From Candidatus Iainarchaeum sp. (GTDB taxonomy: Archaea; Iainarchaeota; Iainarchaeia; Iainarchaeales; UBA10219), in contig JAGVWE010000007.1 of the NCBI GenBank assembly GCA_018304425.1, positions 25,804 to 89,803 on the forward strand: a stretch of DNA of 64,000 nt, read 5' to 3'. This document shows positions 2,387 to 59,856 of this stretch, one piece after another. How positions within the stretch are numbered: the first letter of the stretch is position 1; every line of letters begins with the position of its first letter. A program made the translations under genes and the position numbers. The notes under the pieces are model-generated. The model made no database searches. It was not told where the DNA came from and saw nothing but the letters and a program-made list of their open reading frames with translations.

Positions 2387-2575
2387 ATGGGTTTCCTGGA
2401 TTTCCTGAAAAAAAAGGGCGGGCAACCAGCCGGCGGAGAAGGCCTCGCCGAAGGCAAGTACGCCGAGGCCTGCACGCTCTGTGGGAAAGCCCCCACCGAC
2501 AAGAAGTGGATGGCCCAGTTCTTCCACAAGAAATGCTTCCGCAAGATGAAGAAAGCCGGGAAAGGAATGATATAG
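2387..2575 (+). CDS. Small putative zinc-binding protein (62 aa)
   Basis: CTLC...HKKC; upstream CATAAATA box. Confidence 0.75.
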   Translation: MGFLDFLKKKGGQPAGGEGLAEGKYAEACTLCGKAPTDKKWMAQFFHKKCFRKMKKAGKGMI

Positions 2576-2611
2576 CGCAGCGTTGCGAATGAAAAACAAG
2601 ATGGGCAAAAA

Positions 2612-3229
2612 ATGACGCACGATGCAAGAAAGCACTGGGAGAGTATTTATCAAGCGAAAAAATCCGATGAATTGAGTTGGCATCAGGAGAAACCCGAAAC
2701 ATCGCTTAAGTTGATTGTTGAAACCGGGTTGGGAAGGGATGCCGGCATAATCGACGTGGGGGCAGGAGACTCAAAGCTGGTGGACAATCTTCTTGACCTC
2801 GGTTTTAAGAACATAACCGTCTTGGATGTTTCCCCAACTGCATTGGAGCGGGCGAAGAAAAGGCTAGGAAGCAGGGCGGTCAGCGTTAAATGGGTGGCCT
2901 CTGATTTGAGGGAATTTGAAACAGGCGATAGCTACGACCTTTGGCATGATAGAGCAGTTCTCCATTTCTTGACCAACGAAGAAGACATTAATCGCTATGT
3001 GGAAGTCGTGAGACGGGTCTTGAAACCAGGGGGTTACTTGATTGTCTCGGCCTTCTCATGGAGGGGGCCAACGAGGTGCAGTGGGCTGGACACACGGCAA
3101 TACTCCGAGGCCTCCATGGAAAAGTTGTTCAACGATTTTGAGCGCATAAAAAGCTTTGAAGAGGAGCATGTAACCCCCTGGGGGGCCGGCCAGATTTTCC
3201 TTTGGAGCGTGTTCAGGAAAAAGGGATGA
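2612..3229 (+). CDS. Class I SAM-dependent methyltransferase (lower GC, accessory)
   Basis: IIDVGAGDS and YDLWHDRAVLHFL. Confidence 0.9.
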   Translation: MTHDARKHWESIYQAKKSDELSWHQEKPETSLKLIVETGLGRDAGIIDVGAGDSKLVDNLLDLGFKNITVLDVSPTALERAKKRLGSRAVSVKWVASDLREFETGDSYDLWHDRAVLHFLTNEEDINRYVEVVRRVLKPGGYLIVSAFSWRGPTRCSGLDTRQYSEASMEKLFNDFERIKSFEEEHVTPWGAGQIFLWSVFRKKG

Positions 3230-3266
3230 AACCGGATGGAGGGCGTCAATAGGGTGACTGAACCGA

Positions 3267-3287
3267 GCCGGCAAGGGAATGATTTAA
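3267..3287 (+). repeat. Remnant copy of the 3' end of gene 2387-2575 (AGKGMI-stop)
   Basis: GCCGGCAAGGGAATGATTTAA vs GCCGGGAAAGGAATGATATAG (2555-2575); 4 differences, all silent third positions. Confidence 0.75.
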
Positions 3288-3311
3288 ATAGTGGGAAAGG
3301 CTAATTCTTTT

Positions 3312-3929
3312 GTGACCCGGAAACCGAAGACGCCGAGGCGTGCCGCGTTCGTTCTAAGCAACAAGACCAAGCGCTTGCCGTTGCCGGTTTTCACGCCACA
3401 CGAATTAGAGCACCGGATAAAGTTGCAGAAGCTTTTGAGCCCAGTCCAGTTATCGGAGCTCCGCACGCTTCCCGTGACGGTTTCCACCAACGTGTTTCGT
3501 CACGCGCTGCCCACCCTGGAACGAGTGCTTCAAACCCATGGAATGAGCGAAGCCCAGATTCGGGCCGCCGTGCAAGCCGCGCCCTGGGATGCCTTGCGGC
3601 GGATGGGCGGCCGGCATGAGCTCGTGGAAGGCAACCTGACCGGCTTGCTGGCTATTCGTCGTCTCCTCAACGGCCAGGCGTTCCCGGACTTCATCCGGTT
3701 CGCGGCGGCCTCCCCCGGTAGCATTTCTTCCCTCGTAACAGTCATTGAAGCGCATAGGGAAAGGGTTTCGCTGGACGAAGCAAAGGCCCTCCTTGTGGCC
3801 GATTACACGGATGTAGCGAGCATGGAACGCGGGCTTGGGTTGCTCCGGCAGCGGGCCGCTGAAAGAGCCGCGAAGCAACGGGAAAGCCGCGGCCCCAGTC
3901 AGCCGCGCATGTTCCGCGCGCACGCCTGA
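3312..3929 (+). CDS. Hypothetical protein with basic N-terminus
   Basis: Long ORF; GTG 3312 fits the TTTAAATA box at 3283-3290 better than 3291. Confidence 0.6.
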   Translation: MTRKPKTPRRAAFVLSNKTKRLPLPVFTPHELEHRIKLQKLLSPVQLSELRTLPVTVSTNVFRHALPTLERVLQTHGMSEAQIRAAVQAAPWDALRRMGGRHELVEGNLTGLLAIRRLLNGQAFPDFIRFAAASPGSISSLVTVIEAHRERVSLDEAKALLVADYTDVASMERGLGLLRQRAAERAAKQRESRGPSQPRMFRAHA

Positions 3930-3945
3930 TTTCTCCGGGCTTTCC

Positions 3946-16121: not shown

Positions 16122-16514
16122 TCACCAGCCGTCTGTTTTGAGGTTTTTCACGCGGTCGAAATGTTTGCGGTTGTTGGTGACCAAGATGGCCTCATGGCAT
16201 ACTGCGATGGCCGCAATCATGAGGTCCAGTACTTCGAGGCGGTTCCCCTTGCGGATGAATTCTGCGTCGAGTAGGGCGACCTGTTCGGCGGCATCAACTT
16301 CGAAGGGAAGCGGTTGTAGCGAGGCCAGGAATTTCCTCGCAAGGTCGAGGCTGGCAGGCGTGCCATACAGCCGCTCTCCAACCAGCACTTCGTATATGTT
16401 GATGCAGGTAGTGGCGATTTCCTTGTCCTGCTCCGGTAGTTGCCGTAATTTTGCGGTCGCAGCCTCTTTTCCGCGAAGATAGGCGATGATGCAATCGGAG
16501 TCAAGGATTATCAT
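16122..16514 (-). CDS. vapC: PIN-domain toxin
   Basis: IILDSD, DLMIAAIA, LVTNNRKHF. Confidence 0.92.
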   Translation of the reverse strand: MIILDSDCIIAYLRGKEAATAKLRQLPEQDKEIATTCINIYEVLVGERLYGTPASLDLARKFLASLQPLPFEVDAAEQVALLDAEFIRKGNRLEVLDLMIAAIAVCHEAILVTNNRKHFDRVKNLKTDGW

Positions 16515-16755
16515 GCATTCTCGCCTGTCGTTTCCAGAATGATGCCGTCGAGTCTTTCCTCAGTCGCCTGTACAAGGCCAGCCGCTTTTCGGCTTCCTCA
16601 TCGGTCATCGGGATGCTGCCGAAATACTTCATGAGGTCGGGTTGTTCCTTTTCCGCCAGCCGCTCGAGCAGGTCGCTGAAGCTCTCGCCTTCGTGCTTGG
16701 CCCTGATGAGCTTCTCATAGACCTTGCCCTTGATGGTAAGGGTTTTGAAGACCAT
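16501..16755 (-). CDS. vapB: VapB-type antitoxin
   Basis: KTLTIKGKVYEKL...ESFSDLLERL; overlaps the toxin start. Confidence 0.88.
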   Translation of the reverse strand: MVFKTLTIKGKVYEKLIRAKHEGESFSDLLERLAEKEQPDLMKYFGSIPMTDEEAEKRLALYRRLRKDSTASFWKRQARMHDNP

Positions 16756-16889
16756 GCTATGTTTAAGGTTAAACATATATTTAATCCTTGCTTCCATCCT
16801 TTTAAGCAACAAACTATTTTTAAGGCAATTGTCGTAATATTGGTGTGTTCGGAGAGTAGATTAATATAGCCATAAAGCAATATAGCTAT

Positions 16890-17138
16890 ATGGCTACAAC
16901 TACGTTGCGGGTGCAACTGCCGGAGGAAAAAGCCAGAAAGGTGCGGGAGCAAGCCATGAAACGCTTCGGTTATTCGAAAGGGGCCATCAGCAAGGCGCTC
17001 AATGTGGCCTTGGATGAATGGTTGGGGAAGGCGAAACCAGCCAAACCGCCTATCACGGCCAAGGACTTGTTAGGGCGGCTGAGTGGCGTAAAGGAGTCCT
17101 CCGTGGAACTCCAGCACAAGGCTCGTGACTATTGGTAG
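16890..17138 (+). CDS. Ribbon-helix-helix antitoxin
   Basis: RFGYSKGAISKAL, SSVELQH; directly upstream of a PIN gene. Confidence 0.82.
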   Translation: MATTTLRVQLPEEKARKVREQAMKRFGYSKGAISKALNVALDEWLGKAKPAKPPITAKDLLGRLSGVKESSVELQHKARDYW

Positions 17139-17146
17139 GCTGTGCC

Positions 17147-17551
17147 ATGTATTTGCTGGACACCAACATTTTTTTGGAAATCCTCCTCGATGGCGCACGC
17201 GCCACCGAATGCCTGCGCCTGCTCTCCCTTTTGCAGGGCGAACGGCTGTCTGCGGTTGTTTCGAAGTTCGCGGTTTATTCGATTTGCCTGATTCTTTTCA
17301 GGAAAAAACAACCCGATCTGGCCCGGGATTTCCTGGCCTATCTGGATTCCCTTCCAACCCTGCAAATCCATGGGACCTCCCTTGAGGAGGATGCCGAAGC
17401 CTTCGCCAGCGCGGAGAAATTTGGCCTTGACTTTGACGACGGCCTGCAGTTTACGGTTGCCAAGCGCTTGAGCGTGGAAGCCATCGTCTCCTTTGACCGG
17501 GACTTCGACAAGACCCCCTTGAAGCGCCTGGAGCCAAGTCAAATCCTTTGA
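17147..17551 (+). CDS. vapC: PIN-domain toxin
   Basis: YLLDTNIFLE, LDFDDGLQ, IVSFDRDFD. Confidence 0.9.
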   Translation: MYLLDTNIFLEILLDGARATECLRLLSLLQGERLSAVVSKFAVYSICLILFRKKQPDLARDFLAYLDSLPTLQIHGTSLEEDAEAFASAEKFGLDFDDGLQFTVAKRLSVEAIVSFDRDFDKTPLKRLEPSQIL

Positions 17552-17565: not shown

Positions 17566-17730
17566 TCACTCGGCTTCCGTTTCCTGTCGTCTGACCCGAA
17601 GGAAGATGCCCGCCGCAATCAGGGCCGCGAGCGCCATCGTGAGTTCGTCGTACTCGGGGATGACGTTGAGGGTGTTGCGGCTGCCGAAGGCGCTGGTCGT
17701 GGTTGGACGGGAAAACCGCTCGTTTCCCAT
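17566..17730 (-). repeat. Orphan PEF-CTERM-like tail, copy 5 (possible 54-aa ORF)
   Basis: Translates MGNERFSRPTTTSAFGSRNTLNVIPEYDELTMALAALIAAGIFLRVRRQETEAE. Confidence 0.85.
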
Positions 17731-18149
17731 ATCGTCAGTAAAACATTTGGCGGTGAAATATGACAGTCGAATATTCTGTTGAGCCCTGGTACGCGCTTGA
17801 AATGCCTGGCGTTCCCGGTCAACAGGGTTTCCCGGGCTTGGAGGGCAATGGCCGCAATCATGCAGTCCTGTGGTTCGATGGGTTGGCCGGTTTGCCAGAG
17901 TCCTTGCTGGATTTCGCCTGCCTCGTTTGCGGCTTGGGCATCCAATGGCAGGGCAGGCAGGGAGGAAAAGAGTTCGCGGACGCGTTGCCTTTCTTCTTTT
18001 CCGGCGCGGTGGAGGCTTTGAATGACTTCAAACACGGTGATAGCCGTCGTCAGCAACGGTTCGCCTTTTCGCTTCAACTCCTCCGCCTTGGCGGCCGCAC
18101 CCTTTTCTCCCCTGATAAGGTCAATGACGTAGCTGGTGTCAAGAATCAT
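17619..18149 (-). CDS. vapC: PIN-domain toxin that has lost its native stop (read-through tail)
   Basis: MILDTSYVID, DCMIAAIA, LLTGNARHFKRVPGL, then unrelated sequence. Confidence 0.8.
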   Translation of the reverse strand: MILDTSYVIDLIRGEKGAAAKAEELKRKGEPLLTTAITVFEVIQSLHRAGKEERQRVRELFSSLPALPLDAQAANEAGEIQQGLWQTGQPIEPQDCMIAAIALQARETLLTGNARHFKRVPGLNRIFDCHISPPNVLLTIWETSGFPVQPRPAPSAAATPSTSSPSTTNSRWRSRP

Positions 18150-18382
18150 GGACGGAAGCCTTCCATGAGGGCGCGACTCCGCGCCAGGCCGGTGGCTCTC
18201 GACGCTTGCACGGCTTCCTCCACCGTTGCCGTGGTCTTCTTGGACAGTATGCCCGCGAATTTCGTCAAATCCGTTTTGTTGGTGAGCCTGCAAATCACTT
18301 GGCTGAAGCTCTCCCGCGCTTTTTTGCTGGAGGCCAGGCGCTTATAGGCGTCCACCGTAATCGAAATCGTTTTCGTTGCCAA
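18146..18382 (-). CDS. vapB: VapB-type antitoxin
   Basis: TKTISITVDAYKRL...ESFSQVI; TTG start after GGTGGGAG. Confidence 0.87.
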   Translation of the reverse strand: MATKTISITVDAYKRLASSKKARESFSQVICRLTNKTDLTKFAGILSKKTTATVEEAVQASRATGLARSRALMEGFRP

Positions 18383-18458
18383 TCTCCCACCTACACATAC
18401 ATACACATACGTGTATTTAAGGCTTTGGCTGGAAAAGTGGTCGCCCTCGTTTATGCCA

Positions 18459-18560
18459 TTAAACGGTTTTCCCGCGTTCCATGCGCCTAATCCATCCGAA
18501 GGCGAGCGCGGCCAGTAGTACGGTCAAGGCCAGCGTGTAGTCCTCGTATTCTGGGTTCAC
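18459..18560 (-). repeat. Orphan PEF-CTERM-like tail, copy 4
   Basis: Translates VNPEYEDYTLALTVLLAALAFGWIRRMERGKTV-stop. Confidence 0.8.
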
Positions 18561-18565
18561 CTCGG

Positions 18566-19345
18566 TTAATGCTTTTTCAGCCCATTTTTTTGAATCCGTT
18601 CTTCAATTTCTTTTTTCACTTGGGGAAAGGAAGGCAGCGGGCCGCCAACCAGCCCACCCAAGTCCCGTTCCCAACTGCCTTTTTTTTCGTCCACTTTGGC
18701 CCAGAAACCGTCTGGCGTGAACCGGAGCCCGGCATGCGCCATTTTCCTGCTTATGAGCCCCGGTTCGGCGGGCACGCCTCTTCGTTTCAGCAGGTGCCAG
18801 AGGTCGTAGACGTCCCTGGCCTTGTTTCTTTCATGGATTGCCCTGATTTTTTCGGCAAGGATTTCTTTTTCGTCCATGGCAAACAGATTGAATGGCCGGA
18901 TCTCCCGATAAATCGGGGCATACGGAAACGTTTGAACGGGCAGCAGCACGCGTTCCCTCAAGCTGATGTTGACGGCAAGGGAGGTTAGGCTTTCCTTGCT
19001 GCCGTCGTAAAGCGGCCCCCTTGCCTGCACGTAAACGTTTGTGCTCCTTTCAAACGCTTCCACGGTTGCCTTCGCCTTTACGTCCAGCAAGCTGAAAAGG
19101 CCGGGTAACCGCGTAAAGAAATTTTTTGGCTTGAAGCCTTTTCCAGCCGTGAAGTCGAGGTCTTCGCTGAAACGGTCCAACTTGTACGCCTTGTATAGGC
19201 AGGTTCCGCCTTTAAAGACGAGCTTGCTCCCGAACTCCCGGTAAATGTTTATCAAGGCCAGGTCCTGCAGGTAATCCAATTCCGTGAGCCGGAGGCTGAG
19301 GCCCTTGAATTTTGCGACGGCCTGCAGTTCTTCACGCTTGAGCAT
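18566..19345 (-). CDS. AbiEii-family nucleotidyltransferase toxin (type IV TA)
   Basis: FKGGTCL, RFSEDLDF, AEKIRA, KARDVYDL. Confidence 0.92.
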   Translation of the reverse strand: MLKREELQAVAKFKGLSLRLTELDYLQDLALINIYREFGSKLVFKGGTCLYKAYKLDRFSEDLDFTAGKGFKPKNFFTRLPGLFSLLDVKAKATVEAFERSTNVYVQARGPLYDGSKESLTSLAVNISLRERVLLPVQTFPYAPIYREIRPFNLFAMDEKEILAEKIRAIHERNKARDVYDLWHLLKRRGVPAEPGLISRKMAHAGLRFTPDGFWAKVDEKKGSWERDLGGLVGGPLPSFPQVKKEIEERIQKNGLKKH

Positions 19346-19919
19346 GCAGCGCCTCCCGCAATTTTTTGGCCCAGCCCCTCGCCTTTTTCGCGTGAAGCAA
19401 AAGCCTGTCCCTGTTGATTTTCCGCTTGTTGTTTTTTATGATGTCCACGGCCTCGGCCAAAGACATTTTCCTGGTCGCCAAGGCGTCCACGATTGCTTTT
19501 TCTTTCTCGGCCAAGAAGATTTCCCGGCCCTGGTAGGTCGTCCGCTGGAAGCCGGTGAAGGCGGTTTCCTTGATTTTGATGAATTCAATCCGGGCGTTCC
19601 CATAGGAAACGATTTTTTTCTTCCTCTTCCGGGTCGTGATTACATGGATGGTGAACGGCAGTTGCTCCGTCAATTTATGGTAGTTTAACGCCGCCCAGCA
19701 CGAGATATAACTTGGCCAGACGATCCATGACGCCACGAGGAATGAATCCGTTTCCAGCGTGTACTTGCCCTTCTCGATTTCGTGGAGGACGCCCGCCTTT
19801 TTCAGCCGGTGTGCGACGAGGTACGCGTAATCAATGCCTTTATGGAGCGTGTCGGCGAGGTCCCTGGCCGTAAAAACCGGGTACGGCTTTAATGCCTCCA
19901 GCTCCTTCTTTTTTATCAT
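19332..19919 (-). CDS. AbiEi-family antitoxin / transcriptional regulator
   Basis: EKGKY, PSYISCWAALNYHKLTEQLP, AEKEKAIVD. Confidence 0.88.
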   Translation of the reverse strand: MIKKKELEALKPYPVFTARDLADTLHKGIDYAYLVAHRLKKAGVLHEIEKGKYTLETDSFLVASWIVWPSYISCWAALNYHKLTEQLPFTIHVITTRKRKKKIVSYGNARIEFIKIKETAFTGFQRTTYQGREIFLAEKEKAIVDALATRKMSLAEAVDIIKNNKRKINRDRLLLHAKKARGWAKKLREALHAQA

Positions 19920-19947
19920 TCCACCAACCTTATCAAAACTGATATGA

Positions 19948-20523
19948 TTAGCCGCCCAACAATTTATAAGGCTTTTCGCTGGTGTTGCCGCCTAATCCCT
20001 GCAAACGCCATGGCCGCCAGGATAACGGCCAGCGCCATCGTGAGTTCGTCGTATTCGGGGATGACGTTGAGCGTGTTGTGGCTGCCGAAGGCGCTGGTCG
20101 TGGTTGGACGGGAAAACCGCTCGTTTCCCATATCGTCAGTAAAACATTTGGCGGTGAAATATGACAGTCGAATATTCTCTTGGCGTTCCTGGTCAACAGG
20201 ATTTCACGGGCTTGAAGGGCAATGGCCGCAATCATGCAGTCTTGTGGTTCGATGGGTTGGCCGCTTTGCCAGAGCCCTTGCTGGATTTCGCCTGCCTCAT
20301 TCGCGGCTTGGGCATCCAATGGCAGGGCGGGCAGCGAGGAAAAAAGTTCTTGGACGCGTTGTTTTTCTTCTTTTCGGGCACGGTGCAGGCTTTGAACTAC
20401 TTCGAACACCGTGACGGCCGTCGTCAGCAACGGTTCGCCTTTCTTCTTCAATTCCTCGGCTTTGGTGACCGCACCCTTTTCCCCCCGAATCAGGTCAATG
20501 ACATAGGTGGTGTCAAGAATCAT
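19948..20523 (-). CDS. vapC: PIN-domain toxin, paralog of 17619-18149, C-terminally deleted and read through
   Basis: MILDTTYVID...LLTRNAK; the HFKRVPGL segment is missing. Confidence 0.7.
   Translation of the reverse strand: MILDTTYVIDLIRGEKGAVTKAEELKKKGEPLLTTAVTVFEVVQSLHRARKEEKQRVQELFSSLPALPLDAQAANEAGEIQQGLWQSGQPIEPQDCMIAAIALQAREILLTRNAKRIFDCHISPPNVLLTIWETSGFPVQPRPAPSAATTRSTSSPNTTNSRWRWPLSWRPWRLQGLGGNTSEKPYKLLGG
19964..20131 (-). repeat. Orphan PEF-CTERM-like tail, copy 3 (possible 55-aa ORF)
   Basis: Translates ...TTTSAFGSHNTLNVIPEYDELTMALAVILAAMAFAGIRRQHQRKAL-stop. Confidence 0.85.
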
Positions 20524-20756
20524 TGTTGGAGGCCTTCCATTAGGGCGCGACTGCGTGCCAGGCCGGCAGCCCTTGACGCTTGCACGGCCTTTTCCATGGT
20601 GGCCGCGGTTTTCTTGGACAAGATGCCCGCGAATTTCGTCAAATCCGTTTTGTTGGTGAGCCTGCAAATGACTTGGCTGAAGCTTTCCCGTTCCATTTTA
20701 CTAGAAGCCAGGCGCTTGTAGGCGTCCACCGTAATCGAAATGGTTTTCGTCGCCAA
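20520..20756 (-). CDS. vapB: VapB-type antitoxin, paralog of 18146-18382
   Basis: Near-identical protein sequence. Confidence 0.87.
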   Translation of the reverse strand: MATKTISITVDAYKRLASSKMERESFSQVICRLTNKTDLTKFAGILSKKTAATMEKAVQASRAAGLARSRALMEGLQQ

Positions 20757-20847
20757 AGCTATCACCTACACATACATACACATACGTGTATTTAAGGATT
20801 TGGTTGAAACCGCCTTCTCTGCCCAGTCTGCCCGGTTTGCCCAGGCC

Positions 20848-21066
20848 TCACCGGTCTTTCCCGCGTTCCCTGCGCCGGATGTGCGCGAACGCCATCGCCA
20901 CCAGGGCCACGGCTAGCAGCAGGGTTAGGTCATCGTACTCGGGGATGACGTTGAGGGTGTTGGGGCTGCAGGCGCTCGTCGTGGTGTAGAGGTCGTCGGC
21001 CACCACGCGGATGTAATAGTCGCCGCTGGTGATGTCGCAGTTCCAGGCGTACACGCAGTTGATGTC
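20848..21066 (-). repeat. Orphan C-terminal fragment of the surface protein, copy 2
   Basis: DINCVYAWNCDITSGDYYIRVVADD...ACSPNTLNVIPEYDDL-TM-RRR aligns with the end of the 1270-aa ORF. Confidence 0.9.
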
Positions 21067-21092
21067 TTGAGGTCGCAGACGGGTGGAGACCA

Positions 21093-22469: not shown

Positions 22470-22512
22470 AGTAAACTCTAAAGTATACTACTTATGAGAA
22501 TACTATTTAAAC

Positions 22513-38067: not shown

Positions 38068-38078
38068 ACAGAATAAAT

Positions 38079-38372
38079 ATGGATGCCAAAAAAGTGAAAG
38101 GCTTGTTGCAACTTGGCACGGTTAAAAAGATAATCGATTTCTTCATGGAGCCGCTGAAAAGAGAAAATGAGGCATTGAATGCTTGCCTGAAAGAAGTCGG
38201 TGAGAAACGTGACAAGGCATTAGCCAAGCGGGCACAGTTCAAACCCGGCAAAACCTACCTGACGTCGTGGTCGGAGGACGACCGCTATGTGGACGACAGA
38301 TTTTACCAGAAAAAGCTGACCGAATGCTACGATAAAAATACGCGGTCGCGGAAGGCCATGGGCTTGCCTTGA
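38079..38372 (+). CDS. Hypothetical protein, paralog of 36875-37180
   Basis: 55/56-bp identity between 38262-38317 and 37070-37125. Confidence 0.75.
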   Translation: MDAKKVKGLLQLGTVKKIIDFFMEPLKRENEALNACLKEVGEKRDKALAKRAQFKPGKTYLTSWSEDDRYVDDRFYQKKLTECYDKNTRSRKAMGLP

Positions 38373-45861: not shown

Positions 45862-46227
45862 ATGCTGTTGGCGCTCAGGCTCAACGACTACCTCGCCTTG
45901 TTGGCCGTCAACTTCCTGGTGAACGCGTTTTTCGTCTATTACGCGGCCCAATGGACCGGAATCCGGGGCAACTCGTATGCCAAGGCCCTGACCGTGGCGG
46001 CCCTTTCCACGCTCTCCCTGGCCGTCGTGGACTTCCTGTTCTTCGAGAAAATCGCGTACGGCTGGCTGTCCTTCGCGGCCTCCCTGCTTGCCTCCCTGTT
46101 CGCCATCGCCTACGTCTACCAAATCAAGGTCGAACAGGCCCTCGTCGTGTGGCTGGTCACCGGTTTCTTCGCCGGCGTCGCCACCTACTTCTTTGGGCTG
46201 GCCGGCCACGTCACGCCCAGCACGTAA
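45862..46227 (+). CDS. Four-TM membrane protein
   Basis: Hydrophobic 121-aa ORF. Confidence 0.75.
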   Translation: MLLALRLNDYLALLAVNFLVNAFFVYYAAQWTGIRGNSYAKALTVAALSTLSLAVVDFLFFEKIAYGWLSFAASLLASLFAIAYVYQIKVEQALVVWLVTGFFAGVATYFFGLAGHVTPST

Positions 46228-46229
46228 AC
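46211..46229 (-). repeat. Remnant copy of the hemK 3' end (FTCWA-stop)
   Basis: TCACGCCCAGCAC is identical at 46211 and 46881; 16/19 identity overall. Confidence 0.7.
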
Positions 46230-46284: not shown

Positions 46285-46545
46285 ATGAATAAGATGAAAA
46301 CCGTGCAATTGGGTGCCCGGGGCCAACTCGTCATCCCCCAGGAGTTCCGCAAGGACTTGGACCTTAGGGAGGGCGAGACCCTGGTGCTGTTCGAGGTAGC
46401 GAATAAACTGGTCCTCAGAAAGCAGGATGCCGTGCTTGAAGCGCTTGAAGACGACTTGAAGGATTGGTGGAAGGTTTCCATTCCGACCCTCAACAAAGTT
46501 TGGGAAGACGAGCCCGAAGGCCTGTGGGAAAAATACTTGAAGTGA
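46285..46545 (+). CDS. AbrB/MazE-type antitoxin
   Basis: RGQLVIPQEFRKDL. Confidence 0.88.
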   Translation: MNKMKTVQLGARGQLVIPQEFRKDLDLREGETLVLFEVANKLVLRKQDAVLEALEDDLKDWWKVSIPTLNKVWEDEPEGLWEKYLK

Positions 46546-46549
46546 TGGC

Positions 46550-46876
46550 GTGAAGCAAGGCGACGTTGTTTTGGTCCGTTACCCCTACACGAACCTCGTT
46601 GATTACAAGATTCGGCCCGCCGTCATCGTTTCCAACGAAACGTTCAACAAAGCGCACTCCTCCTTTCTCGCCTGCCCCATTACCTCGAAGCCGACGCTTC
46701 CCGAGTATTGCCTTGAGTTGACGCCGGAAAACTTCCATGGGAAACTGGAAACAAGGAGTTTCGTGCGCACGGACAGCATGGCCGCCGTCGAGAAAGAATT
46801 GTGCTTGAAGGAAATAGGGTTCGTCGAGCCCGCCTTCCTGAAAGCCCTCGTCGAAAAAATCGCCAAAAACTTCTGA
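46550..46876 (+). CDS. mazF: PemK/MazF family toxin
   Basis: GDVVLVRYPY...KIRPAVIVS...PITS. Confidence 0.9.
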   Translation: MKQGDVVLVRYPYTNLVDYKIRPAVIVSNETFNKAHSSFLACPITSKPTLPEYCLELTPENFHGKLETRSFVRTDSMAAVEKELCLKEIGFVEPAFLKALVEKIAKNF

Positions 46877-46880: not shown

Positions 46881-47468
46881 TCACGCCCAGCACCTGAACA
46901 CGAACAATTCCTCGAACGAGACCTTCTTGTGTGCGGCCATTTCATGCCGGATGCCGAGCCGTCCCAGCATTTCCCCGGTTTTTTCGGCGCCATTCAAATC
47001 GTTTTGCAGGAAGTACGCACTGCCGCCAGGCGCCAGAAAAAACTTGAACTGTTCCAGGAACTCGTCAAGGAACTGCCTGCCCTCAACCCCGCCGTCCACG
47101 GCCAGGTCCTCGATGCCCTCGCTGGGGAGGTAGGGCGGGTTGAAGACGATGACGTCGAACCGCTCCCCTTCCGGGATTTCCTCGAACAACTCGGATTCCC
47201 GCACCACCAGCTTGGCCTTGAGCTTCAAGCGCTCGAAGTTCAGCCGCGCGTTCTCCAACGCCTTCGGGTTCACGTCCACGGCCCAGACCTCGCGCGCCCC
47301 CGCCAACGCGGCGTTCACGGCTTGTATCCCGGAACCGGTGCCCATGTCCAGCACCCTGTTGCCGGGCTTCACGTCCACGGCTTCCGCCAGCAAATAGGAG
47401 TCCTCACGCGGCTCATACACGCCTTCTAACACCGCAAGCTCCACGTCCTTGAAGAAGGCCTTGCGCAT
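46881..47468 (-). CDS. hemK: HemK2/MTQ2 family protein methyltransferase
   Basis: VYEPREDS, LDMGTGSG, FNPPY. Confidence 0.92.
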   Translation of the reverse strand: MRKAFFKDVELAVLEGVYEPREDSYLLAEAVDVKPGNRVLDMGTGSGIQAVNAALAGAREVWAVDVNPKALENARLNFERLKLKAKLVVRESELFEEIPEGERFDVIVFNPPYLPSEGIEDLAVDGGVEGRQFLDEFLEQFKFFLAPGGSAYFLQNDLNGAEKTGEMLGRLGIRHEMAAHKKVSFEELFVFRCWA

Positions 47469-55013: not shown

Positions 55014-55041
55014 TGAGGCCTCCGTAAATCGAATGAAAAGT

Positions 55042-55105
55042 GGCTCAGGGTTGGGTTAACTCATCGTCCCCACGCGGGTCAGAAGGTGTTAACGTCATCA
55101 TCGCC
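55042..55105 (-). ncRNA. C/D box guide sRNA
   Basis: GGCG-ATGATGA-(12 nt)-CTGA-hairpin-ACGATGA-(12 nt)-CTGA-GCC; upstream CTTAAA box. Confidence 0.85.
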
Positions 55106-55143
55106 GTCTGATGTGGTAGGTGGTACCGTTTAAGTTTGTATGG

Positions 55144-56082
55144 TTATGGCCGGTCTTTAGCGGTTGTGGCTCCTTTGGAGGAGATGCCGACCACTTTGAA
55201 TTCGGCTCGCACCTTCTTTTTGGCGAAGGCTTCAACCATGGCTTTTCCGATTTGTCGGCCCTTTTGCTTGGCTTCCGTGAGCGCGAAGACGGTGGGGCCT
55301 GAACCGCTGATGGAGCATCCAAGGGCACCCGCTTCCAGGGCCGCGTTTTTTACCTGGTCGAATCCCGGAATCAGGTGTTTTCTGGCTGGTTCGATGACCG
55401 CGTCGCAAATGGATTCCCCGACCAATCGAATGTTCTTCGTGCAAACCCCGGTCACAATGCCTGCGAGATGGGCGGTGTTCCAGACCATTTTTTCGAGTGC
55501 CACTTGCCTGGGCAGGATGGCCCTTGCCGTCTTGGTCGAAATGCTTAGGTCGGGATGGGTGACAACCGCGTAAGCATGCAGTGAACCCAGCGGGATGACC
55601 TGCAAGGGCTTCATGTTCTTTATGAGCACGAAACCGCCCAGCATGCTGGGCGCAACGTTGTCTGCGTGGAAACCGCTTACGGTGGCCTCGGATTTCAGGC
55701 AAGCCGGCAACAAGGCTCTTTTATCCAGCCTTTTTTCCGCCAACCGGTTTATGGCATACGCCGCCGCCACGGCGCTGGCTGCGCTGCTGCCGAGCCCCGA
55801 GCCAATCGGCAGCCCCTTTTCCAGCGTCAATTCTGCCCCCCAGTCCTTTGCTTGCCTCAGCAATCGCAGGGTCTCCTTTGCCGCAATGCCTGCACAGTTT
55901 TTGTCAACGTCGTAGGGAAGCTTTCCGCCGTCGCCCCTGATTTTGGTGATTCTGATTCCGGGTTCGCTTGACTTTTTGGCGGTGACCCTGTCGCCCAGTT
56001 CTTCCAACGCAAATCCAAGGCAGTCGAACCCGGGGCCGACGTTGGCCACGGTTGCCGGCCCGAAACAAGTTACTTTGTTCAT
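55144..56082 (-). CDS. thrB: Homoserine kinase
   Basis: ANVGPGFD, PIGSGLGSSAAS, HADN, ISGSGPT. Confidence 0.95.
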   Translation of the reverse strand: MNKVTCFGPATVANVGPGFDCLGFALEELGDRVTAKKSSEPGIRITKIRGDGGKLPYDVDKNCAGIAAKETLRLLRQAKDWGAELTLEKGLPIGSGLGSSAASAVAAAYAINRLAEKRLDKRALLPACLKSEATVSGFHADNVAPSMLGGFVLIKNMKPLQVIPLGSLHAYAVVTHPDLSISTKTARAILPRQVALEKMVWNTAHLAGIVTGVCTKNIRLVGESICDAVIEPARKHLIPGFDQVKNAALEAGALGCSISGSGPTVFALTEAKQKGRQIGKAMVEAFAKKKVRAEFKVVGISSKGATTAKDRP

Positions 56083-57350
56083 TTCAATGCCTGCCTGATT
56101 TTGCTGATTGTGGGCGCAATGATCAATGGTTTATTCGCGTACTTGCTTGGCGCGGGTATTCCCTTTGAGTGATAATCCAGCGTGGCTTGCGGGTCTTTCA
56201 AGAGGTTTCCCGTGAGAATGCCCACCACGCTTTCGTCTTTTTTGATTACGCCCTTTTTGACCAATTTCCGGATGCCGGCAACGGTGCACGCGGAAGCGGG
56301 CTCGCATCCGATGCCGCAACCGTCCACGACTGCTTTGGCGTCCATGATTTCCGTTTCCCCGACCTGTTCAACCACGCCTTTCGTGAACTGAATGGTTTTC
56401 ACGGCCTTGGCGTAATTGATGGGGCTTCCAATCCGGATGGCGGTTGCAAGGGTTTCCGGCGCAAGCACCGTTATTTTTTCCTTGAAATCCGTCAAATAGC
56501 TTTGATAAAAGGGGTTGCTGCCCGCCGCCTGAATGACCGCCACCCGGGGAACCCGGTGGATGAGTTTGGATTCCTTTAATTCCGCCAAGGCTTTGCCGAA
56601 GGCCGCCGTATTCCCAAGGTTTCCGCCGGGCACCACAATCCAGTCGGGTGCCTGCCAGCCCCGTTGCTGCAACAACTCGAACACGATGGTTTTTTGTCCC
56701 TCCAAGCGGAACGGGTTCAATGAGTTTAATGGATAGAAACCCAGTTTTGGTGCCAGCTCCTTCACGATGCGCATGGCATCGTCAAAATTTCCATTGATTT
56801 GAATGGTTTTTGCGCCATAGGCAAGCGACTGACTCAGTTTCCCCAAAGCGATTTCGCCCTTTGGAATGAATACGACCGCTTTGAGGCCGCCTAGGGCGGC
56901 GTAAGCCGCCATCGATGCCGCCGTGTTTCCCGTCGAAGCGCAGACCACCGTTTTCGCGTTGAAGAATATTGCCATGCTCGTTCCAACCGTCATGCCCCGG
57001 TCCTTGAAGGAACCGGTCGGGTTTTCGCCCTCGTGCTTGGCCCACACTTTTTCGATTCCACAGTAGTGTGATAATCTTCTGTGGCGGTACTGGCGCGTGT
57101 TTCCCTCTGCTCGGCTAACAACGCATTCAGTTGGCAGGGGCGGTAAGAGTTCCTTAAACCGCCAAACCCCGCTTGAGCGGCCTTGTGCTTCGGCAAGGCG
57201 CTCGTCAAATAATTGCCTGGACAAGCGCTGCCGGTTCTTTTGCGGGCTCAACGAAACCTCCAATAAGCCCCCACAATCGCACACCCATCGGGTTCTCGTG
57301 CTTGCATGGGACTTCCCGCATTCGATGCAAACAAGCCGGATTCCCTTCAT
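56079..57350 (-). CDS. thrC: Threonine synthase
   Basis: NPTGSFKDRG, ASTGNT, PGGNLGN, CEPASA. Confidence 0.95.
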   Translation of the reverse strand: MKGIRLVCIECGKSHASTRTRWVCDCGGLLEVSLSPQKNRQRLSRQLFDERLAEAQGRSSGVWRFKELLPPLPTECVVSRAEGNTRQYRHRRLSHYCGIEKVWAKHEGENPTGSFKDRGMTVGTSMAIFFNAKTVVCASTGNTAASMAAYAALGGLKAVVFIPKGEIALGKLSQSLAYGAKTIQINGNFDDAMRIVKELAPKLGFYPLNSLNPFRLEGQKTIVFELLQQRGWQAPDWIVVPGGNLGNTAAFGKALAELKESKLIHRVPRVAVIQAAGSNPFYQSYLTDFKEKITVLAPETLATAIRIGSPINYAKAVKTIQFTKGVVEQVGETEIMDAKAVVDGCGIGCEPASACTVAGIRKLVKKGVIKKDESVVGILTGNLLKDPQATLDYHSKGIPAPSKYANKPLIIAPTISKIRQALK

Positions 57351-57405
57351 TGTCACGCCAGCATCGCCATATAGACTAGCGGTATTACCGTTTAAGTTCG
57401 TTTGG
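57351..57405 (-). repeat. Degenerate copy of the C/D sRNA promoter and 5' end
   Basis: AACTTAAACGGTA is identical to 55124-55136; GGCGATGCTGGCGTGACA vs GGCGATGATGACGTTAACA. Confidence 0.65.
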
Positions 57406-57425
57406 GTGGGGTGAGACTTATCGCT

Positions 57426-57593
57426 TCATTTCAGTATCTTGTAGTCCCCGTCGTTCCCGATAATCCGCGTGTAGTGTTCGGTCTGGTCGACCGCGATTTT
57501 GCCGCATTTGCAGGGGCTGAAGGTGCCGCGCAAATCCCCTTCGATGACCTGCTTGCAGTGCGTGCACTTGAGTTTCGTCTTTTTGGGGTTCAT
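57426..57593 (-). CDS. 55-aa zinc-ribbon protein (below the ORF-track cutoff)
   Basis: MNPKKTKLKCTHCKQVIE...CKCGKIAVD. Confidence 0.75.
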   Translation of the reverse strand: MNPKKTKLKCTHCKQVIEGDLRGTFSPCKCGKIAVDQTEHYTRIIGNDGDYKILK

Positions 57594-57607
57594 GTTGCCA
57601 CGCTCCG

Positions 57608-58543
57608 TTACTCGTTTTCCAACGCATGCAGGTATTGTTTCTTGAACCGCCTCACGAGGCGGACGGCCAATGCCCGTGCATTATTGTTGTAATGGCATTT
57701 CTCTAGGGCGTTGAAGTATTGCTGTTTTTCCTTGGTTTTGATGTCTATCATGGCGTAGCCGTGCTTATTGAGGACGAAGTTCATGACGATGCGGGCGGTC
57801 CGGCCGTTGCCGTCCTGAAACGGGTGGATGCGCACGAGTTTCCAATGAGCCCAGGCCGCCAATTCCAGCGGGCACAACTCTTTTTTCAGCTTCTGGTACT
57901 CTTGAAAATAGTTCTTCATGTCGGGAAGGACGTATTGCGGTGGCGTGAGCTCGAACCGGGAACCGCTCACCCTGTTTTGGTGCGTCTTGTATTGGCCGGC
58001 GATTTTCGGCTTGGTGTCCTTGAAGTACATTTTGTGGATTTTCAGCGCGAGGTCCTCGTCCAGGTCACCTGGATGTTCCTTCACGAATTGAAGCGTTCTT
58101 TGCGCGGCCTTCGCTTCCAGCACGTCGTCCAGAGGCTTGTTCGGGGAGATGTTCTCGCTCAGGAGCAGTTCGACTTCTTTGGGGCTCAAGGTCGAGCCTT
58201 CGATGGAGTTGGTGTTGTAAACGAAGGCCATCACGAAGTTCTGGTCGAACTGTTCTCGCACCGAGGGGGTTTGCTTATGGTATCGGCCCCAGAATTCCTT
58301 GTTTATCCGGTCGGCTTCCGTGATTTCATCCGGCGTCAGGTAGTGCCGGCCTTGGGATTTTGTTTGTTCTGTTTCGACTTCTTCCTCGAATTGGGCCATG
58401 AGTGTCTGGAGTCGGGTTTCGGATGGCTTTTCCGTGCCCACGTATTTCCTGACCTGTTTCCTCCGTCCGGCGGCTAACCGGATGTTTTCCGCCAGGTAGT
58501 AGTATACCTTGCCGCCTTTCCGCAGTTTCGTCAGATAGGCCAT
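57608..58543 (-). CDS. Fic family protein
   Basis: HPFQDGNGRTAR; SIEGS inhibitory-type motif. Confidence 0.93.
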   Translation of the reverse strand: MAYLTKLRKGGKVYYYLAENIRLAAGRRKQVRKYVGTEKPSETRLQTLMAQFEEEVETEQTKSQGRHYLTPDEITEADRINKEFWGRYHKQTPSVREQFDQNFVMAFVYNTNSIEGSTLSPKEVELLLSENISPNKPLDDVLEAKAAQRTLQFVKEHPGDLDEDLALKIHKMYFKDTKPKIAGQYKTHQNRVSGSRFELTPPQYVLPDMKNYFQEYQKLKKELCPLELAAWAHWKLVRIHPFQDGNGRTARIVMNFVLNKHGYAMIDIKTKEKQQYFNALEKCHYNNNARALAVRLVRRFKKQYLHALENE

Positions 58544-58549
58544 ATCATG

Positions 58550-58604
58550 GTATTACTCACAAATGTTTAAAAATGGGTGAGTAATACATAGAAATGAGTA
58601 ATAC
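58550..58604. promoter_or_regulatory. Operator-like repeats around the Fic TATA box
   Basis: GTATTACTCA inverted relative to two direct copies of TGAGTAATAC. Confidence 0.65.
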
Positions 58605-58620
58605 AAGGGATGACGCCGTT

Positions 58621-58642
58621 AGGTGTTAACATCATCATCGCC
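58621..58642 (-). repeat. Copy of the C/D sRNA 5' end (box C plus most of guide 1)
   Basis: 21/22 identical to 55084-55105. Confidence 0.85.
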
Positions 58643-58685
58643 TTCTATTACTTACGGCGATACTATTTTATTGGATGGCCCTCGA

Positions 58686-58742
58686 TTAACGGCCTTTCTG
58701 GCCCTGGATAAGGCGGAGGATGACGTCCTCGTAGGTTTCGCC
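58686..58742 (-). pseudogene. C-terminal remnant of an RHH antitoxin
   Basis: GETYEDVILRLIQGQKGR-stop, beginning right after the Fic stop. Confidence 0.55.
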
Positions 58743-59711
58743 TTACATCAGCCGCCTGTTTTTGACTTGCTCAATGAAAGTTTTGTGGCAGAATTTTACA
58801 AAAAACTTTTCCCGCCCTGTTTCAACCGATTTTATCAGTGCTTCAAAATATTTTGAGGTTTCCTTTGAAATATTGAGCAATGGATAATCATTGTCTTGCA
58901 ACACTTTATTGAATAATAGCCTGCACATGCGCTTGTTCCCGTCCTTAAAAGGGTGAATCAGGTAAATCTTCAAGTGAACCAATGCAGCAAGCTCCAGGGG
59001 GTGAATGTTTTGGTTTTGTTCAAGCCATTCAAAAAAACCTTTAAATAATTCCTTGACTTTTTCAGGTGGCGGAGGCCGGTAATTTATTTCTTCGCTTTTG
59101 AGGGTCAAAGGATTATACTTTGCAATGATTCTTTGGTCGTCCCTCAACTGCCCCGGCGTTTTGTCCTCAAAATAAGACATCACTATGCCATGCAGCCTCA
59201 AGGCATCTCTTTCACCGAACTTTATTTTTGGCAAAAAATTGAAGCCGGTAATCATGGAACTTGAAATTATCACCTTGCTATTTAGAATCGGTTCAGCTCT
59301 TTTGTCTCTTATGATTTGAAAAGCGGTTTCAACATCAGAAAATCCAACGTCAACCCCTTCGGTCCGGAGCGTTGTGTAAACAAAATCAATTGCCTGCTTT
59401 TTGTAAAACGATTCTTTCCTGTTTTTGCTTAATTTGTTAAATCTTTCAAAAAAGTTGTCTTTAATGCGTTCAACTTCTGCGAGCTCTTTTCCGGTCAAGA
59501 TAGAAGATTTGTATTTGTCAAGCCTTTTTTTATAAAACCTTTCAAGGGCTTTTTCCTCAAGCTCTTTTTCCTTGATTTTCAACCCTTTTTTTGAAGGCTT
59601 TTCTTTGCCCAAATATAAAGACAGTTTTATTACTTTCCTGCCAAACCTGACGGGCTTTTCCAAATAATAATACTCCTTGCCTTTAACCGTTCTTTTTATC
59701 AGCCCAGCCAT
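58743..59711 (-). CDS. Fic/Doc family protein (very low GC)
   Basis: HPFKDGNKRMCR. Confidence 0.92.
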   Translation of the reverse strand: MAGLIKRTVKGKEYYYLEKPVRFGRKVIKLSLYLGKEKPSKKGLKIKEKELEEKALERFYKKRLDKYKSSILTGKELAEVERIKDNFFERFNKLSKNRKESFYKKQAIDFVYTTLRTEGVDVGFSDVETAFQIIRDKRAEPILNSKVIISSSMITGFNFLPKIKFGERDALRLHGIVMSYFEDKTPGQLRDDQRIIAKYNPLTLKSEEINYRPPPPEKVKELFKGFFEWLEQNQNIHPLELAALVHLKIYLIHPFKDGNKRMCRLLFNKVLQDNDYPLLNISKETSKYFEALIKSVETGREKFFVKFCHKTFIEQVKNRRLM

Positions 59712-59714
59712 AGA

Positions 59715-59756
59715 AAGTTATACCTACAATAGGATTATAAATGTAGTTATAACTTT
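59715..59756. promoter_or_regulatory. 15-bp inverted repeat bracketing the TATA box; putative operator
   Basis: AAAGTTATACCTACA ... TGTAGTTATAACTTT (1 mismatch). Confidence 0.65.
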
Positions 59757-59832
59757 TATCGCTGCAAGTTTGAAATCAATGTAGTGACAACTTGTAAAAT
59801 CCAAACTATGGGAGAACGGCCTTTCCGCAACG

Positions 59833-59856
59833 ACGTCATCATCGCCGTCTGATGTG
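59833..59856 (-). repeat. Copy of the C/D sRNA leader and box C
   Basis: 24 bp identical to 55092-55115; ATATAAA box upstream. Confidence 0.88.

Follow-up and report, generated by a model that had tools for sequence, protein, structure and literature searches.

We analysed a 64,000-nucleotide stretch of the genome of the archaeon Candidatus Iainarchaeum sp. (order Iainarchaeales), hereafter the window, in which accessory genes, mostly for toxin-antitoxin, Fic and ATPase proteins, lie as small cassettes between direct copies of the end of a resident gene, tRNA or small RNA (sRNA). Repeat-flanked cassettes of this kind are a real phenomenon in the genome, although not every instance is genuine, and in a related genome the entry of a foreign gene end together with its cargo is seen directly by comparison with a congener. 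The explanation that we tentatively prefer is serial end displacement at conserved anchors, i.e. homology-anchored capture of foreign DNA. The genome, coded G000, is assembled into 7 contigs (C1-C7; 1.48 Mb) with a guanine-plus-cytosine (GC) content of ~58%, a completeness of 92.5% and a contamination of 1.3%; the 17 sequencing runs listed as containing this DNA are labelled groundwater or soil metagenomes. The window corresponds to C7:25804-89803, and coordinates given without a contig name are positions in the window. G-numbers denote the other Iainarchaeota genomes compared, and L-numbers the individual loci fetched.

Arrays of gene-end copies in the window

An earlier reading of the window (the original prediction) held that cargo of one or two genes sits between direct copies of gene ends at several unrelated loci, one copy usually remaining intact. 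All six anchor sets were recovered at, or within a few bases of, the places it named, with five copies of a surface-protein tail, three of a tRNA-Pro and four of the 5' end of a C/D sRNA, and each of these three arrays contains one intact copy. Self-BLAST of the window (E <= 0.01) returned 18 direct pairs and no inverted pairs except 4 local palindromes. The arrays share no repeat similarity with one another; each repeats its own anchor.

The surface-protein tail array (17566-26325) lies entirely on the minus strand. It begins with an intact gene (22513-26325) for a protein of 1270 amino acids (aa) with a Laminin_G_3 domain (Pfam), whose tail, T1, ends in NTLNVIPEYDEITMALAALIAAGIFLRVRRAAKP and the stop codon. 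Behind it follow, in order, an archaeal ATPase with ATPase_2 and DUF234 domains (cargo 1, 21093-22469; Pfam E 1e-28 and 3e-26); tail T2, an 81-aa C-terminal fragment of a surface-protein homologue (20848-21093; 55% identical to T1 over 71 aa); the toxin-antitoxin (TA) pair VapBC-B (cargo 2, 20131-20803; Pfam PIN E 9e-16); tail remnant T3, recognised by sequence comparison (19964-20131); an AbiEi-like gene with a gene for an AbiEii nucleotidyltransferase toxin (cargo 3, 18566-19919; Pfam AbiEii E 1e-31); tail remnant T5, also recognised by comparison, which ends in TEVNPEYEDYTLALTVLLAALAFGWIRRMERGKTV and a stop codon and lies directly 3' of the AbiEii stop codon (~18460-18565); VapBC-A (cargo 4, 17730-18428; PIN open reading frame (ORF) 17619-18293, Pfam PIN E 3e-19); and tail remnant T4 (17566-17730), 95% identical to T1 over 85 bp. 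The AbiE pair has a paralogous pair at C6:67956-69953, and the PIN ORF of VapBC-B (19948-20667) runs out of frame into T3.

Although the tails diverge from one another by up to ~35% in nucleotide sequence, all five keep an (I/N)PEY(D/E) motif, a hydrophobic span (~17 residues), an RR cluster and, within a few codons of it, a stop. We call them sorting tails purely for this PEY-hydrophobic-RR pattern; the last 120 aa of the surface protein match no curated sorting-signal family (NCBIfam), and no archaeosortase search was made. Codon comparison over the first 30 positions gives 7 silent changes and 1 replacement between T1 and T4, and 13 silent changes and 6 replacements between T2 and T3. Such silent-rich differences indicate that each copy diverged mostly as a translated gene end and not as a decaying duplicate. 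Silent changes dominate here and in the zinc-protein tail described below, in keeping with the proposal that the remnants come from orthologous alleles rather than from target-site duplication.

The tails are also mosaic. A core encoding NTLNVIPEYDE is common to four of them, the fifth having a diverged PEYED core, and the arms are mosaic on both sides: T4 has a left arm as in T3 and a right arm as in T1, and T3 has a left arm as in T4 and a right arm like that of T2. The exchange of arms places crossovers within the conserved NTLNVIPEYDE-coding core. A unit consisting of tail right arm, vapB, vapC and core is present twice, with the tails 97% identical and the VapBC genes 88% identical over 623 bp, copy B having a 27-nt deletion at the 20178/20179 junction with T3; one of the two units is interrupted by AbiE together with a tail copy belonging to it. 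Just past T4 lie two further PIN-type TA loci (16122-17551), a VapBC pair (16122-16812) and a PIN gene (17132-17551) preceded by a small ORF, with no tail copy detected, so that the TA island reaches past the tail array. A GC break inside the surface-protein gene was considered as a mark of a foreign 3' half and was not used, the profile being patchy.

The tRNA-Pro array (26434-29695) starts with an intact, intronless tRNA-Pro(UGG) gene (26434-26506, +; ARAGORN, Rfam). It is followed by ATPase A, with AAA_14 and DUF4143 domains (26616-27821, -; Pfam), by a second tRNA-Pro(UGG) whose intron position holds 50 inserted nt (28108-28230, +; Rfam 51.6 bits, ARAGORN intron mode), by ATPase B, of the same domain composition and 31% identical to ATPase A (28270-29529, -; Pfam), and by a 43-nt 3' remnant of tRNA-Pro(UGG) with an intronless anticodon-loop junction (29653-29695, +; self-BLAST). 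The parts common to the three tRNA copies are 100% identical in the window self-BLAST. The stretch between ATPase A and the intron-bearing tRNA (27846-28104) is rich in hairpins, several of them GC-rich; it includes a palindromic TATA region upstream of ATPase A (27846-27879) and a 23-bp repeat (28013-28035 and 28082-28104), the latter copy ending 4 nt before the tRNA. ARAGORN also proposed tRNAs with introns of 345-1814 nt, which resembled tRNAs split by cassettes; these fall within coding sequence, vanish without intron mode and were discarded as false positives.

The third array (55040-59856), again on the minus strand, is anchored at a C/D-box-like sRNA (~55040-55110) whose boxes C, D', C' and D were recognised by eye and motif search; Rfam reported no match at the gathering threshold. 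The sRNA with its 5' flank is the intact anchor (55040-55143; repeat part 55092-55143). Genes resembling thrB (GHMP kinase) and thrC (PALP) lie between this copy and the next (55144-57356; Pfam), which is a diverged copy of the sRNA 5' flank (57355-57405; score 20 in the flank test described below). The following cargo region (57426-58543) holds FicA (57608-58543; Pfam) and a small DUF7695 zinc-ribbon ORF (57426-57593). A 5' sRNA fragment with the C box and the word GTTAACACC comes next (58621-58646; self-BLAST, motif search), then FicB, in a region of 43% GC (58743-59711; Pfam), and finally a fragment of 5' flank and C box, 24 nt of which are 100% identical (59825-59856; self-BLAST, motif search). 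In G040, which belongs to another family, a Fic gene of 77% identity lies between repeats with a C-box-like word, one copy containing GTTAACACC as in the window.

Three smaller loci complete the set. A Cys-rich ORF of 62 aa, here called the zinc protein (2387-2575, +; supported by coding score and translation, with no Pfam or NCBIfam match), ends in KKAGKGMI, and its last 28 nt (2547-2574) form the intact anchor. Downstream lie a gene for a class I S-adenosylmethionine methyltransferase (2612-3229, +; Pfam Methyltransf_11/25 E 1e-15) and a tail remnant ending in RAGKGMI (3259-3286, +; 22/28 nt alike, flank-test score 16). The last 7 codons and stop (AGKGMI and stop) are kept in both tails, and the 3 differences there are all silent, none causing a replacement.

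At the second locus, a HemK/PrmC-like methyltransferase gene (46881-47468, -; Pfam MTS/PrmA) is the intact anchor, MazE-MazF the cargo (46285-46876, +; Pfam), and a 19-nt remnant of the hemK end the second copy (46211-46229, -; 17/19 nt identical to 46881-46899), comprising the stop codon and the last five codons. The order of a Trx-like gene, hemK and a GTPase gene is kept in G013, G015, G016 and G027, where hemK adjoins the GTPase gene; this adjacency in four order-level relatives marks the 1-kb MazEF stretch as an insertion. A different ORF, of 141 aa, occupies the hemK site in G024, and a MazEF homologue in G025 has no flanking repeat.

The third locus consists of a membrane-protein gene (-, product ending NRSPYP) and a gene for a 101-aa protein (+, ending AMGLP) at 36580-37180, two small genes in a TA-like arrangement (37186-37700, -; 87 aa and 81 aa), and a diverged copy of the first pair (37795-38372), with high nucleotide identity at the two 3' ends only (72 bp at 92% and 24 bp at 96%). 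The 81-aa cargo protein gave a weak ParD-like match (E 0.011) below the cut-off. The predicted doubling of the NRSPYP tail is real; what had been taken for an intact gene and a remnant are two whole, divergently transcribed gene pairs.

Past the last Fic cassette, a fluoride riboswitch (Rfam 38.8 bits; 61303-61373, -) lies upstream of ORF 60700-61245, which matches only the C-terminal part of DUF3326 and no CrcB family.

Repeat-flanked loci in the genome and in relatives

Over the whole genome, repeat pairs within 10 kb of each other were direct in 62 cases and inverted in 2, the 62 including tandem repeats inside one 2811-aa gene, and repeats spaced at least 400 bp apart occurred at 18 loci outside the window. 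We then scored the local alignment between the two flanks of 4334 runs of 1-3 predicted genes (the flank test). At a score of at least 16 there were 45 matches between direct flanks, compared with 10 for inverted and 9 for permuted partners; at a score of at least 20 the counts were 21, 1 and 2, respectively. Direct repeats thus far exceed both the inverted and the permuted controls. Repeat lengths range from 14 to 200 bp and identities from 70 to 100%, and the cassettes measure 0.65-2.3 kb, their cargo being tightly bounded by the repeats. At least 10 unrelated anchors occur in this one 1.48-Mb genome. Besides gene ends, they include gene starts or 5' halves (AbiE at C6:67851/69996, the sRNA 5' end and the 5' exon of tRNA-Pro) and a 200-bp segment internal to a gene (C1:438520/439416).

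The repeat-flanked cassettes outside the window include a Fic gene (C1:16418), an AbiE pair with a 29-bp repeat of the gene start (C6:67956), a TA-like pair with the 200-bp repeat of a radical-SAM gene segment (C1:438761), a MazE-like pair (C3:139594) and an AAA_14 ATPase (C3:7909-9231). A 66-bp repeat of a tRNA-Tyr 3' end bounds a 2.9-kb island with Fic, ParE-like and GNAT genes. No flanking repeats were found around the ATPase at C3:279312. At C1:437910-440790 a radical-SAM/SPASM gene is apparently split by the two-gene TA-like insert and its homeologous repeat, and a single former gene may have given rise to both the upstream ORF of 299 aa and the downstream ORF of 410 aa. Other candidates were set aside. 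A repeat upstream of two tRNAs gave a strong flank match and is not a cassette scar, and a repeat of ~108 bp at rpl4-rpl23 (C3:107486-107593 and 108916-109026) is a structured repeat in a ribosomal protein operon. The internal hairpin of the latter differs between the copies by paired, compensatory-looking changes, and the repeat could be a structured RNA.

Pfam scans of the 70 window ORFs revealed no integrase or transposase, and a six-frame search of the genome with PF00589, PF16795, PF07282, PF00239, PF01797 and PF01609 gave no match inside the window, in agreement with the original prediction that neither enzyme is recognisable in these 64 kb. The inventory elsewhere in the genome, which it had called for, yielded one strong intact tyrosine recombinase (290 aa, C1:397115), labelled Xer-like in this analysis, and a second integrase that is split, its N half (C1:590-1405) lying beside tRNA-Thr(CGU) and an IS200-type TnpA gene and its C half at C7:98-319. 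The two halves are probably one gene disrupted by an insertion sequence (IS) at an assembly break, the starts of C1 and C7 adjoining. The C half lies ~26 kb upstream of the window. Apart from this single IS200-type TnpA gene, the other mobile-element genes are one DDE transposase and one clear TnpB-type match, with another below the cut-off.

On sequence evidence, the cassette cargo is foreign and mobile. Cassette regions have a GC fraction of 0.45-0.55 and the core genes next to them one of 0.60-0.66; the step is sharp at 29800. The relatives searched were a set of GTDB representatives, in which the nearest relatives belong to the same order and each to another family. Homologues of ATPase A that are 73-84% identical occur in ten genomes of five other families, whereas the prolyl-tRNA synthetases (ProRS) of the same ten are 36-67% identical; in an eleventh homologue, from a sixth family, the values are 64% for the ATPase and 60% for ProRS. 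The laterally spread block of ATPase A (26632-27890) covers the gene and ~65 bp of promoter, including the palindromic TATA region, and nucleotide similarity among the copies ends before the flanks. Genes of this ATPase type reach 9 copies per genome, with many matches near contig ends. FicA homologues reach 78% identity, 19 being at least 67% identical, and are spread over at least 13 other families.

Repeats around these genes were then compared with shuffled flanks (100 shuffles as the null). The test could be applied to 24 of the 29 ATPase loci obtained from the order, and 8 of the 24 (L012, L014, L020, L021, L025, L033, L038 and L039) have flanking direct repeats above the null, versus 1/24 in the inverted control and 0/27 testable ProRS loci (29 fetched). 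The repeats are mutually unrelated. That of L012 covers the last ~30 codons of a membrane-protein gene, with 11 silent and 8 replacement changes, and that of L014 a tRNA-Leu 3' end; L020, L021 and L025 repeat intergenic sequence, and L033 and L039 repeat sequence beside a second ATPase gene, perhaps a common promoter and not a scar. The same flank test was positive at 2/24 Fic loci. When the 45 nt abutting the Fic cassette were searched for a second copy downstream, 6/26 loci were positive, compared with 0/26 for the inverted word and 1/26 for a control word located 300 nt upstream.

FicA-type genes across the order (L102-L130; window 58544-58620) have a common 62-nt upstream module, in which TATTACTCA occurs twice in direct and TGAGTAATA in inverted orientation around a TATA box, TTTTTAAA. 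The module is probably an operator-promoter unit. It marks the left edge of the cassette.

Empty and filled sites were compared at hemK, at order level, and for one ATPase cassette in the congeners G037 and G038; in both cases empty sites exist, as an insertion model had anticipated. In G038 the cassette is absent and the gene has a single end, which aligns with the downstream remnant of G037, native stop codon and flank included. What is now joined to the G037 gene, over ~30 codons, is a diverged foreign allele, and a word of ~22 nt at the switch point is common to all three sequences. In G037, therefore, a foreign end and its cargo entered and the resident end was pushed behind. For the G089 cassette (L021), a dispersed ~85-bp repeat in the right flank confounded the comparison with a congener.

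Read evidence consisted of Logan contigs, not raw reads, from runs X4, X6, X8 and X10. Long contig joints with sides shorter than 30 letters were disregarded, and use was made solely of the flat depth in X4, where contig depth was 10.2-11.5 over cassettes and 9.2-10.3 over core genes. This uniformity argues against arrays stitched together from strain variants, the assembly artefact that would have undone the original prediction; contigs can show no more than this. One X6 contig has 54 extra letters exactly at 20178/20179, the junction of VapC-B and tail T3, which is strain-level variation at a cassette-tail junction. A scan of metagenome contigs with the VIT1-like protein beside the tRNA-Pro array gave 3 loci at 57% identity with no common synteny, and a scan of viral contigs with ATPase A found no relative.

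Proposed homology-anchored capture and its alternatives

Under serial end displacement, the incoming DNA would be a small piece from another Iainarchaeota lineage. Its cargo would be one or two accessory genes that are self-contained and bring their own promoter, whether for TA pairs, for Fic proteins or for AAA+ ATPases that have a nuclease-like domain; it would also hold a copy of a conserved host sequence, namely the end of a tRNA or C/D sRNA or the final codons of a gene. Recombination within the conserved stretch would link the foreign copy to the resident gene and move the resident copy behind the cargo; the gene would stay intact because the foreign anchor copy is joined to it. Repeated events at the same anchor would stack cassettes, each followed by an older anchor remnant. 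The work would be done by the host homologous recombination machinery and not by a dedicated integrase. The substrate may be small circles, excised between flanking repeats and taken up by a single crossover, or alternatively linear DNA with one homologous and one illegitimate end. Addictive or defensive cargo would favour retention. Homologous or homology-facilitated recombination is probably the route, and the many unrelated anchors, the 5' and internal anchors, the diverged repeats of 14-200 bp, the absence of a cassette-borne recombinase and the scarcity of recombinases in the genome all appear to fit homology-anchored capture.

Several observations weigh against it. Homeologous ends, mosaics and the G037/G038 arrangement are equally expected for integrase-borne elements with replacement ends. 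The same cargo is found behind different anchors, which means that anchors must be switched, something that homologous recombination of circles cannot do by itself; this change of anchor is explained by neither the capture nor the integrase model. Detectable repeats accompany only ~1/3 of the cargo-family members in G000, and they are missing from 16/24 ATPase loci and from 22/24 (flank test) or 20/26 (anchor test) Fic loci. Several genome-wide repeats that had been candidates for cassette scars are really shared promoters, tandem paralogues or paralogue ends. The zinc-protein and hemK tails, which are present as predicted, are individually weak, since about 1 in 5 matches like the former (score 16) and about 1 in 2 like the latter (score 15) are expected by chance; near noise on their own, both gain support from the other evidence. 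In X4, X6, X8 and X10 we saw no cassette-spanning contig, empty site or circular junction, the contigs breaking at repeats, and the search of these four runs for circular junctions and excised alleles, in contigs only, came back empty. Five relatives with repeat-flanked cassettes have 1-6 PF00589 matches each, on other contigs, and at 92.5% completeness further recombinases are possible in G000 itself. Lastly, some boundaries look like the products of site-specific recombination. The tRNA-Pro repeats (36-43 bp, 100% identity) start in the anticodon loop like classical att sites, and in 6/29 loci the FicA module starts 0-3 nt beyond a complete tRNA gene's 3' end (Asp, Tyr, Cys in three cases, and Ser), a precision that is hard to obtain through illegitimate joins and suggests a site-specific step or strong selection.

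These last points lead to the most serious competitor, which we regard as quite possible. The cassettes would be miniature or decayed integrative elements whose tyrosine integrase is encoded elsewhere, sits on an unassembled plasmid or virus, or has been lost; this enzyme would have recombined the att sites of the elements with tRNA, sRNA and gene ends, and the arrays would have accreted by re-use of sites. In accretion of the cis-mobilizable element (CIME) type, tandem arrays arise by repeated use of one site. Besides the tRNA-Pro and tRNA-abutting boundaries, the 66-bp tRNA-Tyr repeat around the Fic island and the second anchor-end copies downstream of Fic genes, at 6/26 loci against 0/26 and 1/26 in the controls, are as this explanation would have them, and the relatives do possess tyrosine recombinases, while G000 has a dead integrase beside tRNA-Thr. 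Archaeal elements, as described by Krupovic et al. (2019, PMC6563490), integrate at tRNA genes, at the 3' ends of genes or at intergenic sites, and build up arrays when a site is used again. Against it, no integrase is found in the ~12 window cassettes, nor does PF00589 match on the cassette contigs of the five relatives, and the sole intact tyrosine recombinase of the genome is Xer-like. An integrase model must also accommodate at least 10 unrelated anchors in 1.48 Mb, among them gene starts, the 5' exon of a tRNA and a segment from within a gene; repeats of up to 200 bp at 70-97% identity in place of a short identical core; and cassettes of 0.65-2.3 kb whose tight boundaries are too regular for random decay of larger elements.

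Local tandem or segmental duplication followed by decay (of surface-protein paralogues, the NRSPYP pair, the VapBC-tail unit and tRNA-Pro), with accessory genes landing later and no capture tied to the repeats, is improbable as a general account. It fits NRSPYP, where two complete diverged gene pairs are present, and perhaps T2, an 81-aa fragment whose homology reaches well upstream of the tail; VapBC-A with T4 and VapBC-B with T3, being one unit twice, and the genome-wide repeats that are paralogue ends or shared promoters point the same way. Duplication sits poorly with the rest. Cargo is unrelated between cassettes (the two ATPases of the tRNA-Pro array are 31% identical) while the tRNA repeats there are 100% identical; in G037/G038 a foreign end and cargo stand at an otherwise single-copy gene end; the hemK, zinc-protein and C6 AbiE repeats are scars of 19-29 bp exactly at gene boundaries; and unrelated repeats surround the same laterally transferred ATPase in other genomes.

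Least probable is that the cargo moves itself, with the AAA_14/DUF4143 and ATPase_2/DUF234 proteins, whose C-terminal domains are classed as PD-(D/E)XK nuclease-like, acting as homing-type nucleases that would cut conserved sites and be copied in with donor flank and the other cassettes riding the same breaks: three window cassettes and C3:7909-9231 are such ATPases with flanking repeats, such loci were repeat-flanked more often than Fic loci in the same test (8/24 against 2/24), copies reach 9 per genome with many matches near contig ends, and DUF4143 and DUF234 appear in a survey of PD-(D/E)XK nucleases (PMC3424549), but these ATPases are not known to have nuclease activity or a target, TA and Fic cassettes bear like scars without such a gene, and the ATPase at C3:279312 has no repeats at all.

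Relation to known systems

DPANN archaea have tiny genomes with few recognisable mobile-element enzymes. Here TA, Fic and ATPase genes are exchanged across family boundaries despite the small number of such enzymes, and the AAA_14/DUF4143 ATPases stand out as unusually mobile single genes. If homology-anchored capture is correct, it would explain how accessory and defence genes are gained and stored without integrases, would carry the idea of end displacement beyond polymorphic-toxin loci of bacteria, into ordinary genes and into archaea, and would give annotators a scar for dating and tracing transfer, namely a homeologous gene-end remnant behind a low-GC gene. In the literature searched, at the level of titles and listings, we found no description of the pattern in DPANN archaea.

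The closest mechanistic precedent concerns the rhs loci, where homologous recombination with circular intermediates was put forward as the route by which gene tips are displaced into arrays (Jackson et al. 2009, PMC2935791). In that account, as in the window, a conserved stretch near the gene 3' end is the joining point, and acquired ends displace old ones, which stack downstream; we found both a conserved joining core and displaced resident ends kept downstream, in G037/G038 and in the five ordered tails. Circle-based homologous recombination, as presented for rhs (PMC2935791), is also a model that the original prediction itself put forward. The rhs gene described there is a polymorphic toxin, with a tip and an immunity gene as payload (PMC2935791), whereas here no variable end is a toxin domain followed by an immunity gene: the displaced piece is a sorting tail, tRNA, sRNA or housekeeping gene end, the payload consists of TA pairs, Fic proteins and ATPases, and many unrelated anchors occur per genome in a DPANN host.

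For type VI secretion system (T6SS) orphan immunity arrays of Vibrio cholerae, the suggested route is homology-facilitated illegitimate recombination (Kirchberger et al. 2017, PMC5361080). Successive insertion by a conserved upstream anchor, with older modules pushed downstream, is shared with the arrays described here, and the authors liken theirs to integrons, with no integrase evident in their account (PMC5361080). That proposal calls for a homologous anchor on the incoming DNA, and homeologous copies do flank the cargo here; for the second junction, which would be illegitimate, at microhomology and variable in position, the remnants vary in length as expected (14-200 bp), but Fic cassettes lie 0-3 nt from tRNA ends. 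Unlike the window arrays, the T6SS arrays as presented belong to a single functional system under immunity selection in naturally competent bacterial hosts, and the account of them includes no duplicated tRNA or housekeeping-gene anchor remnants (PMC5361080). The interpretation in the original prediction is partly supported, through the allele-like remnants, the empty sites, the displacement in G037, the excess over controls and the lack of a local integrase, with the mechanism itself still a proposal; it is also less new than implied, given the rhs and T6SS proposals.

Integrated elements of archaea produce direct repeats of a tRNA or of the 3'-distal part of a gene (PMC6563490), and the tRNA-Pro, surface-protein tail and hemK repeats likewise duplicate a tRNA or gene 3' end. 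In the elements surveyed there, too, the insert supplies a replacement stop or gene end, and re-use of a site gives tandem arrays (PMC6563490). They differ in bringing their own tyrosine recombinase or casposase with a defined site per enzyme (PMC6563490), whereas no cassette here has an integrase of its own; the present cassettes of 0.65-2.3 kb lack a recombinase and use 5'-end anchors as well. Marks of transposons or IS elements were not found either: PF07282, PF01797, PF01609 and PF00239 have no match in the window, and the repeats are diverged, 14-200 bp long and without inverted pairs other than local palindromes.

Integrons resemble the arrays in having promoter-proximal one-gene cassettes, each followed by a recombination site, with TA cargo common and new cassettes displacing old ones. 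They differ in that the window arrays have no IntI, attI or attC-like shared palindrome, an anchor of their own for each array, and promoters of their own in the cassettes. No integron integrase was found beside the arrays (PF00589 and PF16795 in six frames; Pfam on 70 ORFs), and window self-BLAST detected no attC-like shared palindrome after cassettes, no attC covariance model having been run; lacking both IntI and attC, the window arrays are not integrons. It is conceivable, though rather doubtful, that Iainarchaeota, and perhaps other DPANN archaea, possess an integrase-free analogue of integrons, in which promoter-bearing, anchor-linked selfish or defence cassettes circulate between families, homologous recombination inserting them and displacing the resident copy, and recombination between repeats releasing circles; any conserved sequence could then become an attachment site, and accessory-gene arrays would accumulate at many places in a genome of 1.5 Mb.

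A further parallel comes from Allomyces mitochondria, where Paquin, Laforest and Lang reportedly described in 1994 a mobile endonuclease ORF carrying a replacement atp6 C-terminus. There, too, a foreign gene end and an ORF are said to have been inserted and the resident end left as a downstream pseudo-copy; that case reportedly differs in concerning an organellar genome, a GIY-YIG endonuclease as proven driver and a single site. Set beside these systems, the window behaves as an end-displacement array, but one whose ends are not toxins, whose cargo is unrelated and which uses many anchors in an archaeal host.

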